A stretch of DNA of 64,000 nucleotides. Origin: Gallionella sp. (lineage in GTDB: Bacteria; Pseudomonadota; Gammaproteobacteria; Burkholderiales; Gallionellaceae). How positions within the stretch are numbered: the first letter of the stretch is position 1; the number at the start of each line of letters is the position of its first letter. The stretch covers positions 59,198 through 123,197 of the forward strand of contig JAQTUP010000002.1 of assembly GCA_028707275.1 (NCBI GenBank), in the 5' to 3' direction. The notes under the pieces are model-generated. The model saw nothing but the letters and a program-made list of their open reading frames with translations, had not been told where the DNA came from and searched no databases. Positions 11,312-58,518 of this stretch are shown piece after piece. Made by a program: the position numbers and the translations under genes.

Positions 11312-11331
11312 ACGACCCCTATCTTCCTTAA

Positions 11332-11452
11332 CCGATGTGACTGCGTCACATCAGTTATGTATTCAAATCAACTTCGCCGGGGGCAGCCCGGCTGCTGGCG
11401 ACTTTCTTTTGTGTCGCCAAAAGAAAGTCGCTAAAGAAAAGGCGCCCCCGGT
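11332..11452. repeat. Truncated copy (5' ~120 bp) of a ~380-bp MITE-like repeat family
   Basis: It shares the terminal palindrome (gatgtgactgcgtcacatcag), the core caaatcaacttcgccgggggcagcc and the hairpin cgactttcttttg-N6-caaaagaaagtcg with the copies at 40900, 52846 and 58093. Confidence 0.6.
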
Positions 11453-31015: not shown

Positions 31016-31088
31016 GCCGCCATAGCTCAGTCTGGTAGAGCACCGGGTAAAACCGGGCGTCGCGGGTTCGAATCCCGCTGGCGGCGCC
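31016..31088 (+). ncRNA. tRNA-like element with canonical acceptor, D and T arms but a shortened anticodon arm (4-bp stem, 6-nt loop GUAAAA); tRNA mimic or tRNA pseudogene
   Basis: GCCGCCA/TGGCGGC acceptor, GCTC-AGTCTGGTA-GAGC D-arm, GCGGG-TTCGAAT-CCCGC T-arm. The anticodon arm is 14 nt (CCGG-GTAAAA-CCGG) rather than 17. There is no encoded CCA. It abuts the next element with no spacer. Confidence 0.45.
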
Positions 31089-31162
31089 TTCGCTATAGCT
31101 CAGCCGGGTAGAGCGCTGAACTCATACTTCAGTTGTCGCCGGTTCGATTCCGGCTAGTGAAA
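31089..31162 (+). tRNA. tRNA-Met/Ile2-like (anticodon CAU) with an unusual U1-A72 first pair and a G4-U69 wobble
   Basis: A full cloverleaf: acceptor TTCGCTA/TAGTGAA, D-arm GCTC-AGCCGGGTA-GAGC, anticodon arm CTGAA-CTCATAC-TTCAG (CAU, A37), T-arm GCCGG-TTCGATT-CCGGC. Confidence 0.5.
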
Positions 31163-40899: not shown

Positions 40900-41278
40900 C
40901 AGATATTACGCCATCAGTTATTCAGATAAATCAACTTCGCCGGGGGCAGCCCTGTCTGCCGACAGGCAGGCCGACGGCTGGTCACTTTCTTTTGTGTCGC
41001 CAAAAGAAAGTAATCCAAGAAAAGGCGACCCCGGTTTGCCGCGCCGCCAGGCTGCCAGCAGTCAGGCGGTGTACCCTCGGTAGTCGCAAACAAGCGGAGC
41101 TGCGCAACTCGCACGAACCGCACAGCGGCCACGCGCTCAAACAGTGCTCGCCTAACCCCACCGCTTGTTTGCGGCTATCTTCGGCGGCGCACAGGGGCTG
41201 TGAGTGACGCGCAACCCGCCTTAAAACAGATCTGATGACTCATCAAGCCTGATTTTTAGAGCGTGTGCGTAACATCAG
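40900..41278. repeat. Full-length (~380 bp) copy of the MITE-like repeat family
   Basis: It contains the caaatcaacttcgccgggggcagcc core, the cgactttcttttg/caaaagaaagt hairpin, the long cagcaaacaa...ttgtttgc inverted repeat and the terminal gcgtaacatcag. It is colinear with the copies at 52846-53202 and 58093-58500. Confidence 0.7.
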
Positions 41279-41490: not shown

Positions 41491-41579
41491 TGGTGCCCAG
41501 AACCGGAATCGAACCGGTACGGAGATCGCTCCCCGACGGATTTTAAGTCCGTTGTGTCTACCAATTTCACCACCCGGGC
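41491..41579 (-). tRNA. tRNA-Leu (anticodon UAA), long variable arm
   Basis: The reverse complement folds with an ACGGA-CTTAAAA-TCCGT anticodon arm and a long extra arm. 89 nt including CCA. Confidence 0.85.
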
Positions 41580-41586
41580 GGATGTT

Positions 41587-41660
41587 TGGAGGTGCGTCCC
41601 AGAGTCGAACTGGGCTAACTGGATTTGCAATCCAGGGCATAACCGATTTGCTAACGCACC
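41587..41660 (-). tRNA. tRNA-Cys (anticodon GCA)
   Basis: The reverse complement is GGTGCGTTAGCAAATCGGTTATGCCCTGGATTGCAAATCCAG...CTCCA, which is close to E. coli tRNA-Cys. Confidence 0.9.
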
Positions 41661-41707
41661 GTACTTCTGAAGAACAAAAGGGAAAGCGTGATGCTTTCCC
41701 TTGAATA

Positions 41708-41783
41708 TGGAGCGGGAGAAGAGGCTCGAACTCTCGACCTATACCTTGGCAAGGTATCGCTCTACCAACTGAGCTACTCCCGC
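41708..41783 (-). tRNA. tRNA-Gly (anticodon GCC)
   Basis: The reverse complement is GCGGGAGTAGCTCAGTTGGTAGAGCGATACCTTGCCAAGGTATAGGTCGAGAGTTCGAGCCTCTTCTCCCGCTCCA. Confidence 0.9.
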
Positions 41784-41825
41784 AGTGGAGCATCGCAAAA
41801 CGTAAAAACTAAACTCCGGTGCAAC

Positions 41826-41901
41826 TGGAGCGGGAGAAGAGGCTCGAACTCTCGACCTATACCTTGGCAAGGTATCGCTCTACCAACTGAGCTACTCCCG
41901 C
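41826..41901 (-). tRNA. tRNA-Gly (anticodon GCC), second identical copy
   Basis: Identical in sequence to 41708-41783. Confidence 0.9.
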
Positions 41902-52845: not shown

Positions 52846-53202
52846 CTGATGTGACGCAGTCACAATCAGTCCTGTGTTCAAATCAACTTCGCCGGGGGCA
52901 GCCCGGCTGCTGGTTACTTTTTCTTGTATCGCCAAGAAAAAGTAACCCAAAAGAAGGCGACCCCGGTTTGCCGCGCCGCCAAGCTGCCAGGCGGCGTTCC
53001 CTTGATACTCAGCAAACAACGGGGCTGCGGAACTCGCACGATCCGCACAGCGCCCACGTGCTCAAACAGTCCTCGCCCAAAAGCGCCGTTGTCTGCTGAC
53101 TATCTTCGGCAGCGCACAGGGGTTGTAGGTGGAGCGCCAGGGTTACTTCTCAAAATAACTCATCAACCCTGATTTTTAGAGCTTGTGCGTAATATCAATC
53201 AG
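52846..53202. repeat. Full-length copy of the MITE-like repeat family
   Basis: It begins with the palindrome ctgatgtgacgcagtcaca and is colinear with 40900-41278 at roughly 85% identity. Confidence 0.7.
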
Positions 53203-54932: not shown

Positions 54933-56387
54933 ATGAAAAAGACACCACACACAAAATCAAACGGAGTTTCAGCTAAGACAGGTGAACCCCGTCGCACTGA
55001 TACATCACCTCGCACAAGCCGTCCGGCAAAACCCGGGCTCACCGGGGCCAAACCGGCTCAACCGACAAAACCCGGGAGTGGGAGTGCAAAACACGATACG
55101 GCAAAGCCGCGTCGCGCCGAAACCAAAACAGCACCCGGCAGATCGTCGACTCAGGCCAATGCCGCGCGTCGCCCGACAAAACCGGCTCCCGCAAAACTGC
55201 CCGCTCAGGCCGAAGGCGCAAAGCCGCGTCGCGTCGGCACCAAACTCACCCGGCTACTCAGCCTGAATGTCGCCGCGCCCAAAGCTGCAACCCCGGCGGC
55301 TGCCCGGCATCAGACCGAGACAATTTCTCATGCAAACTGGCTGCTGTATTGTCGCCCAGGCTTCGAACAGGATTGCGCGCAGGAGGCGGTCGCTCAGGCA
55401 AGATCACAGCGCCCGGTGCTGGCCGAACAGCCCGAGATCACGGCTAACAGCGGCTATGCGGTGGTCACACTCAACGAGCAGGCATTAAGCTATCGCGAAC
55501 TGATTTTCGCACGCCAGTTAATCCGCCTGCATCACACCATAGATCAGCTGCCCGAACGCGACCGGCTCACCCCGATACTCGCCGCCATCCTCGCCCTGCC
55601 CGGCAACTTTAGTGCGCTGTGGCTGGAAGTGCCTGACACCAACGACGGCAAAACCCTCTCGGCCTTTATCCGGCGTTTTCAGCCGCTGCTCGAAGACGCT
55701 TTGCGCGAACGAGGACGATTGACGGCAGACGCAGGGAGCGAAAAGTTGCCCCGCTTGCATATTTTCTTCACCGACAAGTCCTCAGCGCTGATAGGCACGA
55801 GCGATCCTTACAACAGCGCCGCCGCCATCATGGGGATCGTGCGCCAGTCCATGCCGGGCGAAGCGCCCAGCCGCTCGACGCTGAAACTGGCCGAGGCGAT
55901 CGAGGTATTTCTGGACAAGAGCGAGCAGACTCGATTGCTCAGAGCCGGGATGACAGCGGTGGATCTTGGCGCAGCGCCAGGCGGCTGGACATGGCAGATG
56001 GTCAGGCGCGGTATCCGCGTGACAGCCGTGGACAATGGCGATATGAAAGGCGCGATGGCGAAAAACCCGCTGGTCGAGCATCTCAAGCAGGACGGCTTCA
56101 AGTACGCACCCCGAAAAACCGTGGACTGGCTGATCTGCGACATGGTGGAAAAACCTGCAAAAGTTGCCGAACTGATCGGCACCTGGTTCACTTCCGGGTG
56201 GTGCCGCAATGCTATTTTTAACTTGAAACTGCCGATGAAACAGCGCGTACAAGCGCTCGATGGCGCTCTGGGCGGCATCAAAAGCCGCCTCGACATGGAG
56301 GGGATCAGCTACAAGATGACCGCCAAACAGCTCTACCACGACAGGGAGGAAGTCACAGTCTTCCTCTCCAGGACCAAAAACAGGTAA
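54933..56387 (+). CDS. rlmM: 23S rRNA (cytidine2498-2'-O)-methyltransferase RlmM with a ~130-aa Lys/Pro/Ala-rich N-terminal extension
   Basis: The core is colinear with E. coli RlmM (LYCRPGFEQDCAQE, PSRSTLKLAEA, AVDLGAAPGGWT, LICDMVEKPAKVAELI, FNLKLPMKQR, QLYHDREEVTVFL). The upstream in-frame region is a basic low-complexity sequence. Confidence 0.85.
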   Translation: MKKTPHTKSNGVSAKTGEPRRTDTSPRTSRPAKPGLTGAKPAQPTKPGSGSAKHDTAKPRRAETKTAPGRSSTQANAARRPTKPAPAKLPAQAEGAKPRRVGTKLTRLLSLNVAAPKAATPAAARHQTETISHANWLLYCRPGFEQDCAQEAVAQARSQRPVLAEQPEITANSGYAVVTLNEQALSYRELIFARQLIRLHHTIDQLPERDRLTPILAAILALPGNFSALWLEVPDTNDGKTLSAFIRRFQPLLEDALRERGRLTADAGSEKLPRLHIFFTDKSSALIGTSDPYNSAAAIMGIVRQSMPGEAPSRSTLKLAEAIEVFLDKSEQTRLLRAGMTAVDLGAAPGGWTWQMVRRGIRVTAVDNGDMKGAMAKNPLVEHLKQDGFKYAPRKTVDWLICDMVEKPAKVAELIGTWFTSGWCRNAIFNLKLPMKQRVQALDGALGGIKSRLDMEGISYKMTAKQLYHDREEVTVFLSRTKNR

Positions 56388-56477
56388 TCTGCGTGGCGAT
56401 ATTTTTGAGCGTCACTGATATGTCTGGATCACATCAGTTATCATTAAACCTGTCGCCATACAATTGAGAGTCTGACC

Positions 56478-57674
56478 ATGAACGAACTGGTATACCCGCG
56501 CGAACGCACACTCGGCACCATCACCCTGGTGCTGGGTCTTCTGGCCTGGCTGGCTCTTATCCTTGGCACCTTCGGTGGTGCACTGATAGGACTCGCGCTG
56601 GGGTTCCTCTTCTACCTGTTCGCTCAATCTGCGCTGATAGCTCATCTGAAGGGAAATGGCGTCGAACTGTCCGAATCCCAGTTCCCCGACCTGTACGCGC
56701 AATTTACAGCCTGTTGCGATCAACTACAAATAAAGACTCGCCCACAGGCATACATCCTCAACGGCAACGGCGGACTCAACGCGTTCGCCACCCGGTTTCT
56801 CGGCACGCAATACGTGGTATTGATGTCGGACGTCATCGATGCGATGGATCAACATACCGATGGCGTACGCTTCTACATCGGACACGAACTGGGTCACCTG
56901 CGCATGAAACATCTGAGCGGACACCTGTTACGCTGGCCTGTGCTCTGGCTGCCCCTCCTGGGGGCGGCCTACTCCCGCGCACGCGAGAGCACCTGCGACC
57001 GCCACGGACGGGCCTGCTGCGCATCACCCGAAGGCGCGCTCAGAGCGCTCGCGGCGCTCTCAGCTGGCACTGAGCGCTGGAAACAACTCGATATCTCAGC
57101 CTATCTTGACCAGATCAGATACTCATCAGGCTTTTGGATGTCATTTCACGAACTGACCGCAGGCTACCCCTGGATCACCAAACGCGCAGCCCGAGTGATG
57201 GACACGGGCGCACCGATGCCCCGGCGGAATGTATTCGCCTGGCTGCTGGCAGCGATCACGCCCTATGCGGGACGACTGGGCGGAGGATACGGCCTGCTGA
57301 TCATGATCTATATCGCAGGCGTTCTGGCCGCCATTGCGATTCCAGCGTATCACGACTACACGACCAAGGCCAGGCTCAGCACCGCTGTCACCGCTACAGA
57401 AAACGCCCGCACAGTGCTTGCCAACTATTACCGGGCCAATCAAAAGACACCGGAATCGCTGGAAACAGCAGGTATCCGCTCGCCGATGACCGATGGCACA
57501 CGGCTTGCACTCGACGCGGAAAAAATGATACTGACCGTTGGCACCGACCGTGGAGATCTGGTCTTCACCCCGGTTGTTGACGCCGAAGGGCTAATTAGCT
57601 GGGATTGTACGAACGGCGAAGGTCTGGAGCCTGCACAGCTGCCCGCCTCATGCCGCAGCAGCCAAAATGACTAG
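56478..57674 (+). CDS. M48-family zinc metallopeptidase fused to a C-terminal type IV pilin-like domain
   Basis: N-terminal TM helices and a HEXXH motif (FYIGHELGHLRMKH) are present. The C-terminal ~140 aa have a pilin alpha1-like hydrophobic helix (LLIMIYIAGVLAAIAIPAYHDYTTKA) and a C-terminal disulfide-loop pattern (WDCTNGEGLEPAQLPASC). Confidence 0.7.
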   Translation: MNELVYPRERTLGTITLVLGLLAWLALILGTFGGALIGLALGFLFYLFAQSALIAHLKGNGVELSESQFPDLYAQFTACCDQLQIKTRPQAYILNGNGGLNAFATRFLGTQYVVLMSDVIDAMDQHTDGVRFYIGHELGHLRMKHLSGHLLRWPVLWLPLLGAAYSRARESTCDRHGRACCASPEGALRALAALSAGTERWKQLDISAYLDQIRYSSGFWMSFHELTAGYPWITKRAARVMDTGAPMPRRNVFAWLLAAITPYAGRLGGGYGLLIMIYIAGVLAAIAIPAYHDYTTKARLSTAVTATENARTVLANYYRANQKTPESLETAGIRSPMTDGTRLALDAEKMILTVGTDRGDLVFTPVVDAEGLISWDCTNGEGLEPAQLPASCRSSQND

Positions 57675-58092: not shown

Positions 58093-58500
58093 CACTGATG
58101 TTACGCACAAGCTTCAAAAATCAGAGGGGTGATAAGTTTTTTGAAAGATAACCTTGGCGCTTCACCTCAAGCCCCTGCGAGCCGCCGAGGATAGCCAGCA
58201 AACAACGGTGCTTTTGGGCGAGGACTGTTTGAGCACGTGGACGCATAGCGGATCGTGCGAGTTCCGCCGCCCCGTTGTTTGCTGACTGTCGAGGGCACCC
58301 CCGCCTGCATGCCCTGTCTGCCGACAGGCAGGCGCAGGTAGGGTCGGCGGGAGCGGCAAGCCGGGGTCGCTTTTTCTTTAGCGACTTTCTTTTGGCGACT
58401 CAAAAGAAAGTCGCCAGCAGCCGGCCTGCCTGTCGGCAGACAGGGCTGCCCCCGGCGAAGTTGATTTTGATACACGACTGATGTGACTCGGTAACATCAG
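58093..58500. repeat. Full-length copy of the MITE-like repeat family, inverted orientation
   Basis: Its reverse complement is colinear with 52846-53202 and 40900-41278. The terminal palindromes are cactgatgttacgca and gactcggtaacatcag. Confidence 0.7.
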
Positions 58501-58518
58501 TCGCCTCAATTTTGCCCC

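Follow-up and report, generated by a model that had tools for sequence, protein, structure and literature searches.

A membrane M48 zinc protease joined to a leaderless type IV pilin-derived module in Gallionella, from a widespread and uncharacterised M48 subfamily

Results

A single gene for a protease and a pilin-derived module

The DNA analysed here (the window) is a stretch of 64 000 nt from a Gallionella sp. contig; all features given with coordinates below lie on its forward strand (+). At positions 56478..57674 we found one ATG-initiated ORF of 398 codons plus a stop, with zero internal stops in its translation; an identical protein is already public (P0001), where it is called 'MAG: M48 family metalloprotease [Gallionella sp.]'. 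Pfam assigned two domains to the product, Peptidase_M48 (PF01435) at 58 bits against a gathering score of 20.3 (E 1.4e-15) and Pilin (PF00114) at 27.5 bits against a cut-off of 22, the latter over aa 296-393, and NCBIfam returned weak matches to HtpX equivalogs and to pilin and pseudopilin N-termini. The 398-aa protein is a membrane zinc protease joined to a type IV pilin-derived module. A preliminary description of this DNA had proposed just such a protease-pilin architecture, quoting the motifs HELGH, AAIAIPAYHDY and SWDC...PASC; all three are present, both Pfam domains score above their gathering thresholds, and the reading of the gene as a single continuous ORF also stands, with no stop or frameshift splitting it and with full-length homologues and a conserved junction in agreement.

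The protein opens with a membrane hairpin (aa 14-57; 56517..56648), recognised from hydropathy and from the structure model as two helices joined by a Gly-Gly turn, which leads into a zinc-metalloprotease core of the M48 (HtpX-like) type (aa 61-241; 56658..57200) on the predicted cytoplasmic side. Besides a NAFAT motif, the core holds the zinc-binding and catalytic motif HELGH with His136, Glu137 and His140 (aa 136-140; 56883..56897), recognised by sequence and conservation, as well as the segment ESTCD (aa 170-174; 56985..56999), in which conservation marks Glu170 and Asp174 of the M48 E-x-x-[A/C]-D motif; by analogy with other members of the M48 family, Glu170 would be the third zinc ligand. 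Next come a juxtamembrane segment, PxRNxFAWLLAxxxPYAGR, delimited by conservation and by a short helix in the model, and a Gly-rich linker, GGG, occupying the place of pilin residues 1-5 (57219..57284 for the two together). From here the pilin alpha1 helix runs over aa 270-321 (57285..57440), as judged by hydropathy, model and alignment, with AAIAIPAYHDY at aa 284-294 and with its N-terminal half (aa 270-292) as the predicted third membrane span. The head (57441..57656) is made up of an alpha-beta loop, a four-stranded sheet and a C-terminal D-region loop of pilin type, closed by the pair Cys377...Cys392 (57606..57653), which SWDC...PASC supplies and which was assigned by its invariance and its alignment with PilE.

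Directly upstream on the same strand lies rlmM, and the 90-bp gap that follows it contains a promoter-like site overlapping the palindrome CACTGATATGTCTGGATCACATCAGT (56415..56444), identified by consensus match only (3 found against 1.2 expected). On the downstream side there is an interspersed repeat. The other neighbours are rluC and rne, fabF, an FtsX-type permease, an S49 peptidase and a HAD hydrolase, so that the gene has housekeeping surroundings. An Rfam scan of the window returned tRNAs only.

Structure model and membrane topology

Given only the 27 close homologues, AlphaFold2 at first produced a good pilin part and a poor protease part (pLDDT 59); this run was replaced by a second one with 54 sequences at 30-77 % identity, the model from which reached a pLDDT of 92.5 and a pTM of 0.80; the latter value suggests that the modelled domains are held in a defined mutual arrangement. 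In order, this model contains helices 7-30 and 34-60 (the hairpin), a mixed alpha/beta core (61-241), a short helix (252-260) and, in its C-terminal part, one long helix at about 269-321, four strands (342-379) and a C-terminal loop. When it was compared with the PDB using Foldseek, full-length N. gonorrhoeae PilE ranked first (5vxx_A and 1ay2_A, E about 3e-5), with about 150 of 156-158 columns aligned at 25-26 % identity, and there were additional matches of the protease part to Ste24, BepA and BlaR1. At the sequence level, the family profile matched PilE at an E-value of 3.4e-19, PilE residues 4-152 corresponding to profile positions 277-406 with both D-region cysteines included, and a PDB sequence search with the protease part retrieved BepA alone (E 0.04). 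The C-terminal 130-140 aa, which had been expected to form a pilin head and helix, do adopt a pilin fold according to AlphaFold and then Foldseek.

Only two stretches of the protein, aa 14-57 and 270-292, are strongly hydrophobic by hydropathy analysis, and five Lys/Arg residues are found within 235-253, just ahead of the pilin helix. In HtpX the active site faces the cytoplasm. By analogy with HtpX, and from hydropathy and charge bias, the active site is placed in the cytoplasm here too; the most economical topology is predicted to have the N-terminus and the protease core on that side, a pilin helix that spans the membrane once and a periplasmic head. The preliminary description had likewise seen the pilin helix as an extra anchor, and its role as a third membrane span presenting the head to the periplasm is predicted here too, from hydropathy, the five Lys/Arg residues and the conserved cysteine pair. 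Such a topology would be that of an unprocessed prepilin, with the protease standing in the place of the leader.

The protease part is HtpX-like and probably active

The family model, the motifs and the fold all place the protease part in M48: PF01435 matched 84 of the 86 family representatives, and the modelled structure has the M48 fold. HELGH is invariant in the 27 close homologues and at least 90 % conserved in sets of 54 and of 86 diverse sequences; in the same three alignments Glu170 is conserved to at least 90 % and Asp174 is invariant. Taken together, the catalytic residues His136, Glu137, His140, Glu170 and Asp174 are retained at 90 % or more, though the representatives share only 30-57 % identity. 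From the conservation of these residues, together with the purifying selection described below, we infer that the protease part is proteolytically active. Four cysteines, predicted to be cytoplasmic, are also invariant in this M48 subfamily.

The HtpX equivalog cut-off was not reached, the best score being 28.8 bits against a cut-off of 369 (NCBIfam cut-offs 341-422). Scores so far below these cut-offs mark the protein as HtpX-like rather than as an HtpX orthologue, and on sequence grounds the protease appears to constitute a separate HtpX-like subfamily of M48.

What the pilin module keeps and what it has lost

Pilin positions were numbered back from an invariant proline equated with pilin Pro22. 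In the family alignment, positions 7-27 follow the pilin consensus, being hydrophobic and including Gly14, Ala17-Ala18, Pro22, Tyr24 and Tyr27. As in a type IV pilin, the module has a hydrophobic alpha1-N that contains Gly14 and Pro22 and runs on into an amphipathic alpha1-C, and it shares with the type IVa class an alpha-beta roll head, an antiparallel sheet and a C-terminal D-region of the disulfide type. Cys377 and Cys392 are both invariant in the 27 close homologues and align with the D-region cysteines of PilE.

Positions 1-5 are Gly, Ala or Ser across the family, Gly is the commonest residue at both -1 and +1, and position 1 is almost never Phe or Met; in the Gallionella protein, positions -1 to +5 read L-G-G-G-Y-G, with Phe1 absent. 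Glu5, which type IV pilins need for assembly, was found in none of 118 close homologues, 63 divergent representatives or 66 genome loci, and is Gly in the Gallionella protein. A class III signal peptide is likewise missing, the pilin helix beginning at aa 270, behind a 269-aa protease and without a leader. The absence of a prepilin cleavage site, asserted from the outset, is therefore borne out in that there is no leader, no Phe1 and no Glu5. Judging from the alignments, the processing and assembly determinants of a prepilin have been systematically removed and the remainder of the pilin kept. As the class III leader and Glu5 are both missing, we refer to a pilin-derived module and not to a pilin. 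With its N-terminus continuous with a 270-aa protease, pilin-style N-methylation and filament assembly would not be open to the module, and its incorporation into a filament is unlikely given the blocked N-terminus and the missing Glu5.

An internal start at Met247, which would give rise to a separate prepilin, was rejected. Met247 is kept only in close homologues, Pro248 and Arg250 are conserved throughout the family, and members devoid of a pilin keep the same segment.

A widespread family with a variable tail

The best 120 database matches (NCBI, JGI, ENA, Logan) are all full-length proteins of about 398 aa with 72-78 % identity, and the junction PYAGRLGxGFG is conserved among the 27 close homologues. 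Beyond these, an exhaustive HMMER search of 1.84 billion cluster representatives gave 4488 matches at E ≤ 1e-3, of which 341 had E ≤ 1e-30, and a scan in which each GTDB species was represented by one genome placed relatives in at least 384 species. Cultured carriers include Methylophilus, Undibacterium, Variovorax paradoxus, Duganella, Massilia, Marinobacter nauticus, Shewanella, Dyella, Thiospirillum, Desulfoluna, Azovibrio and Iodobacter, and complete chromosomes are represented as well. JGI product names cover both halves of the protein ('Zn-dependent protease with chaperone function/type II secretory pathway pseudopilin PulG' or '...PilE'), and precomputed Pfam matches in the databases pair PF01435 with PF00114; for annotation pipelines, then, the architecture holds nothing new, both domains being shown together in the databases already. 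The earlier statement that it had not been described can accordingly be upheld for the literature searched and must be given up for the databases, where the fusion is common (thousands of sequences). Full-text searching of the literature, in so far as it is searchable, found no paper that describes or tests an M48-pilin fusion. One 'M48' match, PMC11656802, was discarded as unrelated, the string belonging to residue numbers such as M487. The M48-pilin proteins make up a widespread, uncharacterised subfamily of M48 whose anchor and ectodomain derive from a pilin.

We could recognise a clear alpha1 at 71 of the 80 genome loci and in 51 of the 86 full-length representatives, and several further representatives have a degenerate alpha1 and keep the W-x-C...C head. 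In about 25-40 % of the representatives a plain third helix or another tail takes the place of the pilin: the juxtamembrane segment, here PxRNxLAYxLAxFxPR, leads into a plain hydrophobic helix, after which comes an unrelated tail made up of Sel1 repeats, GYF_2, DUF6693 or acidic low-complexity sequence. The plan common to the family is a hairpin, an M48 core, a third membrane helix and a variable extracytoplasmic tail, and a pilin is the commonest form of that third helix and tail. Since such members lack a pilin altogether, the protease module is able to function on its own.

Rough dN/dS values against the nearest DNA relatives were 0.06-0.11 for the M48 part and about 0.2 for the head; with dS near saturation they are indicative only, and they point to purifying selection on protease and head alike. 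Among 45 pilin-bearing representatives, the protease modules matched one another at E < 1e-20 in 1980 of 1980 ordered pairs, and the heads matched at E < 1e-3 in only 256 of the same pairs; where the proteases are 50-59 % identical, a match between the heads persists in only 34 % of cases. By this measure the heads are hypervariable, as are real pilin heads, and diverge much faster than the protease.

The type of module also differs between members. That of Gallionella resembles the PilE of the Neisseria/Pseudomonas type, and that of another representative, P0237, classed by matches of the module alone, is of the Myxococcus type (M. xanthus PilA, 8tj2, E 1.6e-17, with a near-identical alpha1; 80 bits to typeIV_PilA_Myxo). 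In a Verrucomicrobiota locus (L084), alpha1 reads ...AAMAIPAFSKVRETAQLKACANNERMI, which is presumably of PVC type. These sequences suggest, in two cases, that the type of alpha1 or module follows the lineage. The two alphaproteobacterial members sampled (Rhodospirillales and Micavibrio; n = 2) both lack a pilin module, and alphaproteobacteria mostly use Tad/Flp rather than type IVa pili.

To sample genomic neighbourhoods, we clustered all ORFs of 90 aa or longer at 82 loci. No neighbour is conserved, any one neighbouring family being present in at most 9 of the 82 loci and the recurring ones reflecting within-genus synteny; the Propionivibrio and Polaromonas neighbourhoods are unlike each other and unlike that of Gallionella. 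A prepilin-like ORF was found nearby at one of the 82 loci only (Desulfoluna), and neither linkage to a pilus operon nor a neighbouring BlaI/MecI-type repressor was seen at any of them. With no recurrent neighbour, the M48-pilin gene is a stand-alone unit outside pilus operons. In Propionivibrio, and there only, a FimV gene lies 7 kb from the copy. The PADLOC defence models gave zero matches, the sole PHROGs match was that of the pilin helix to a family of unknown function, and plasmid and phage collections contained no full-length copy.

Discussion

A possible link between proteolysis and the pilin pool

Type IV pili draw on pilin subunits that are kept as a pool in the inner membrane, and the turnover and monitoring of this pool are known in part only (PilS-PilR in Pseudomonas, PilA-PleC in Caulobacter); for the reading of the pool by PilS, PMC6058289 cites Kilmury and Burrows (2016). 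We know of no dedicated pilin-pool protease. The M48-pilin family may link proteolysis to pilus subunits, and we tentatively propose, as a reading that could well be right although we would not yet lean on it, that these proteins are active, cytoplasm-facing membrane proteases which a non-polymerisable pilin module couples to the inner-membrane pilin pool or to the pilus machinery. The two-helix hairpin would anchor the N-terminus, with the catalytic core on the same side of the membrane as that terminus, and the pilin alpha1-N, after the basic segment and the Gly linker, would cross the membrane to a disulfide-bonded periplasmic head. Owing to its blocked N-terminus and absent Glu5, the tethered module would not be extractable into a filament. 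By way of the pilin surfaces that it retains (the head, and alpha1 with Gly14, Pro22, Tyr24 and Tyr27), it would either bind the resident pilins or assembly platform of the inner membrane or partition together with them, and so localise the protease to the pool or platform. The cytoplasmic active site might in this way be brought beside the cytoplasmic ends of pilins or prepilins or of machine components, the outcome being turnover, quality control or regulation of the pilin pool.

In favour of this coupling we count the architecture, the conserved catalytic residues, the predicted topology, the systematic loss of assembly determinants, the precedent of other membrane proteins that read the pool, and what appears to be selection for pilin-like character over a plain anchor, as seen in the frequency of a recognisable alpha1, the hypervariable heads, the hints of lineage matching and the pilin-less alphaproteobacteria. 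Against it are the absence of genomic linkage to pilus genes and the sizeable minority of the family that is pilin-less.

Other explanations have to be weighed against the same observations. That adjacent protease and pilin genes were merged by an error of sequencing or assembly, or by a frameshift, is refuted by the continuous frame, by more than 100 independent full-length homologues of about 398 aa from NCBI, JGI, ENA and Logan, and by 80 genome loci, isolates and complete chromosomes included, with the junction conserved. Of more substance is the view that the protein is a general membrane quality-control protease, an HtpX paralogue, in which the pilin-derived helix and tail serve merely as an anchor or stabilising ectodomain and have no connection with pili. 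It would explain why neighbours are not conserved and pilus operons not linked, why some members carry plain helices and unrelated tails, and why the head is the least constrained part, and it fits the HtpX-like arrangement of motifs and N-terminal helices. A plain anchor, however, needs no Pro22, Tyr24, Tyr27, full head or disulfide loop, and most members keep these; the Gallionella and P0237 modules resemble distinct pilin classes, and the head, at its dN/dS, is not decaying. Moreover, an unrelated DUF2628 membrane protein bears the same kind of leaderless module, which suggests that the module itself contributes function. We judge this explanation unlikely on balance, yet serious enough to be kept in view.

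Two further proposals give the pilin part a more specific task. The protein might be a one-component transducer of the BlaR1 kind, in which the cytoplasmic protease, activated once the periplasmic pilin head has sensed a ligand or the condition of the pilus, cleaves itself or a cytoplasmic regulator. The predicted overall layout is similar, and the model matches BlaR1 among other proteases; Peptidase_M56 and blaR1 models nevertheless gave no match to the Gallionella protein and weak ones in 5 of 86 relatives, and the adjacent repressor gene of BlaR1-type systems is absent near M48-pilin genes (82 loci), and we regard the proposal as improbable. Alternatively, the protease could be the giant leader of a pilin precursor, cut within the Gly linker by its own active site or by prepilin peptidase so as to free a pilin-like subunit for the pilus or its base. 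HtpX does cleave itself, and prepilin peptidase mainly requires Gly at -1, which together with +1 is most often Gly in the family; the linker also sits where a prepilin cleavage site would be. With Glu5 never present and Phe or Met almost never at position 1, however, any subunit so freed would be without the residues that assembly requires; the supposed leader is a three-part membrane domain of 270 aa under strong purifying selection, and pilin-less members retain the same linker region. Such a precursor seems to us very improbable indeed.

Returning to the coupling of an active protease to the pilin pool, a bolder version can be formulated, in which M48-pilin proteins would be widespread, unrecognised pilus-associated proteases: the non-extractable module would dock among pilins or at the base of the type IV pilus, so that the cytoplasmic protease could degrade or process pilins, prepilins or the platform and set the size of the pool or stall or terminate assembly. 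In this specific form the idea is speculative and, we think, doubtful. The family itself, with a conserved protease physically fused to a pilin that has lost exactly the residues for processing and assembly, offers a concrete candidate for a pilin-pool protease, and since it occurs in at least 384 species, genetically tractable ones included, the candidate role is testable. Even if the pilin part is a mere anchor, the family demonstrates that a pilin module can find new use as a membrane-anchored ectodomain at a C-terminus; and if the pilus-associated reading is true, then together with the DUF2628-pilin protein it would make 'leaderless pilin modules' a general device for targeting inner-membrane proteins. 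An uncharacterised M48 subfamily with four invariant, predicted cytoplasmic cysteines is of interest in itself, and the systematic loss of Glu5, with hints of a lineage-matched alpha1, should strike pilus specialists.

Comparison with known systems

Among proteases, HtpX (MEROPS M48B), the inner-membrane quality-control protease of E. coli, resembles the Gallionella protein in its NAFAT/HExxH/ExxxD layout and two N-terminal helices. The M48-pilin family differs in a distinct conserved C-terminal region and in its four invariant cysteines, predicted to be cytoplasmic; in addition, HtpX is without a third membrane helix and a periplasmic domain, both of which are predicted here. BlaR1 and MecR1, the beta-lactam sensor-transducers of MEROPS family M56, are similar in predicted layout only: the present protease belongs to M48 and not M56, it has three predicted membrane helices rather than four, and it carries a pilin in place of a penicillin-binding sensor domain.

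On the pilin side, the type IVa major pilins (Neisseria PilE, Pseudomonas PilA; PF00114) have the same fold and belong to the same sequence family as the module, which lacks their short basic leader, their Gly-1/Phe+1 site and their Glu5. The closest parallel in construction is a Variovorax Zn-ribbon-DUF2628-pilin protein (WP_068674268.1), which ends in the same kind of leaderless, Glu5-less PF00114 module; its N-terminal part consists of DUF2628 and a zinc ribbon, with no protease, and it is likewise uncharacterised. This second, unrelated fusion suggests that leaderless pilin modules are a reusable device.

The nearest conceptual relatives are membrane proteins by which the pilin pool is read. 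One is PilS of P. aeruginosa, an integral membrane protein that does so in the inner membrane (PMC6058289), and PilA signalling via PleC in Caulobacter is reportedly a further instance (PMC7196804). Both are integral inner-membrane proteins proposed to contact the pilin alpha1-N within the bilayer, a concept similar to that put forward here. PilS and PleC, however, are histidine kinases that bind free pilins; in the M48-pilin proteins the interaction is hypothetical, the pilin is built in and the output would be that of a protease.

Cysteines of the protease core

Four cysteines lie within the predicted cytoplasmic protease core of the M48-pilin protein: the adjacent pair Cys79 and Cys80 (window positions 56712-56717), Cys173 (56994-56996) and Cys180 (57015-57017). 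All four were found to be invariant among 27 close homologues, and Cys173, which is positioned three residues beyond the third zinc ligand, is at least 90 % conserved in the wider family of M48-pilin relatives. These residues could bind a second metal or act as a redox switch.

Sequence context of the M48-pilin gene

The window contains an interspersed repeat family of at least four copies (11331-11452, 40912-41045, 52865-53155 and 58139-58501), which are found in both orientations and share 83-94 % identity. Between the stop codon of the M48-pilin gene and rluC, the downstream gene, most of the intergenic space is taken up by one copy. Spurious ORFs called over the copies translate as '...QLRRGQPCLPTGRP..GDFLL.RQKKV..EKATP.CR...', and the repeat ends bear a hairpin, ACTGATGTGA...TCACATCAGT; the element looks like a MITE or a REP-like sequence. 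A short way 5' of the M48-pilin start codon we observed a palindrome, CACTGATATGTCTGGATCACATCAGT (56413-56438), that is similar to this terminal hairpin and also overlaps a promoter-like site (56415-56444). It could be a remnant of the repeat or, alternatively, an operator.

In the upstream neighbour, an RlmM-like methyltransferase ORF (54933-56387, forward strand), the first Pfam domain (RlmM_FDX, from aa 136) is preceded by an N-terminal extension of ∼130 aa that is basic and contains many Lys, Pro, Ala and Thr residues. Either this is a genuine disordered extension or the start codon has been over-called. Elsewhere in the window there are two tRNA clusters, one of two genes on the forward strand (31016-31162) and one of four genes on the reverse strand (41494-41901), with two members of the latter (41711-41783 and 41829-41901) sharing 94 % identity over 87 nt.

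Tail variants and a second pilin fusion

In some members of the M48-pilin family, including the representatives P0254 and P0164, the periplasmic part is replaced or extended by Sel1/TPR-like repeats that match MerG, AlgK and MotX-like models; in P0254 the pilin alpha1 helix is retained ahead of them. Additionally, the gammaproteobacterial MAG MFD02923.bin.3.140 encodes, on two contigs, near-identical M48-module paralogues without pilin (loci L082 and L083), in each of which the third helix is plain and is followed by a short His-rich tail.

A leaderless pilin fusion different from M48-pilin was found on plasmid 2 of Variovorax sp. WDL1 (locus L085, 3380-4357). This protein, WP_068674268.1, annotated solely as 'DUF2628 domain-containing protein', joins a zinc ribbon and a DUF2628 membrane domain to a PF00114 pilin module; the fusion is present on four Variovorax megaplasmids and, like M48-pilin, is without Glu5.
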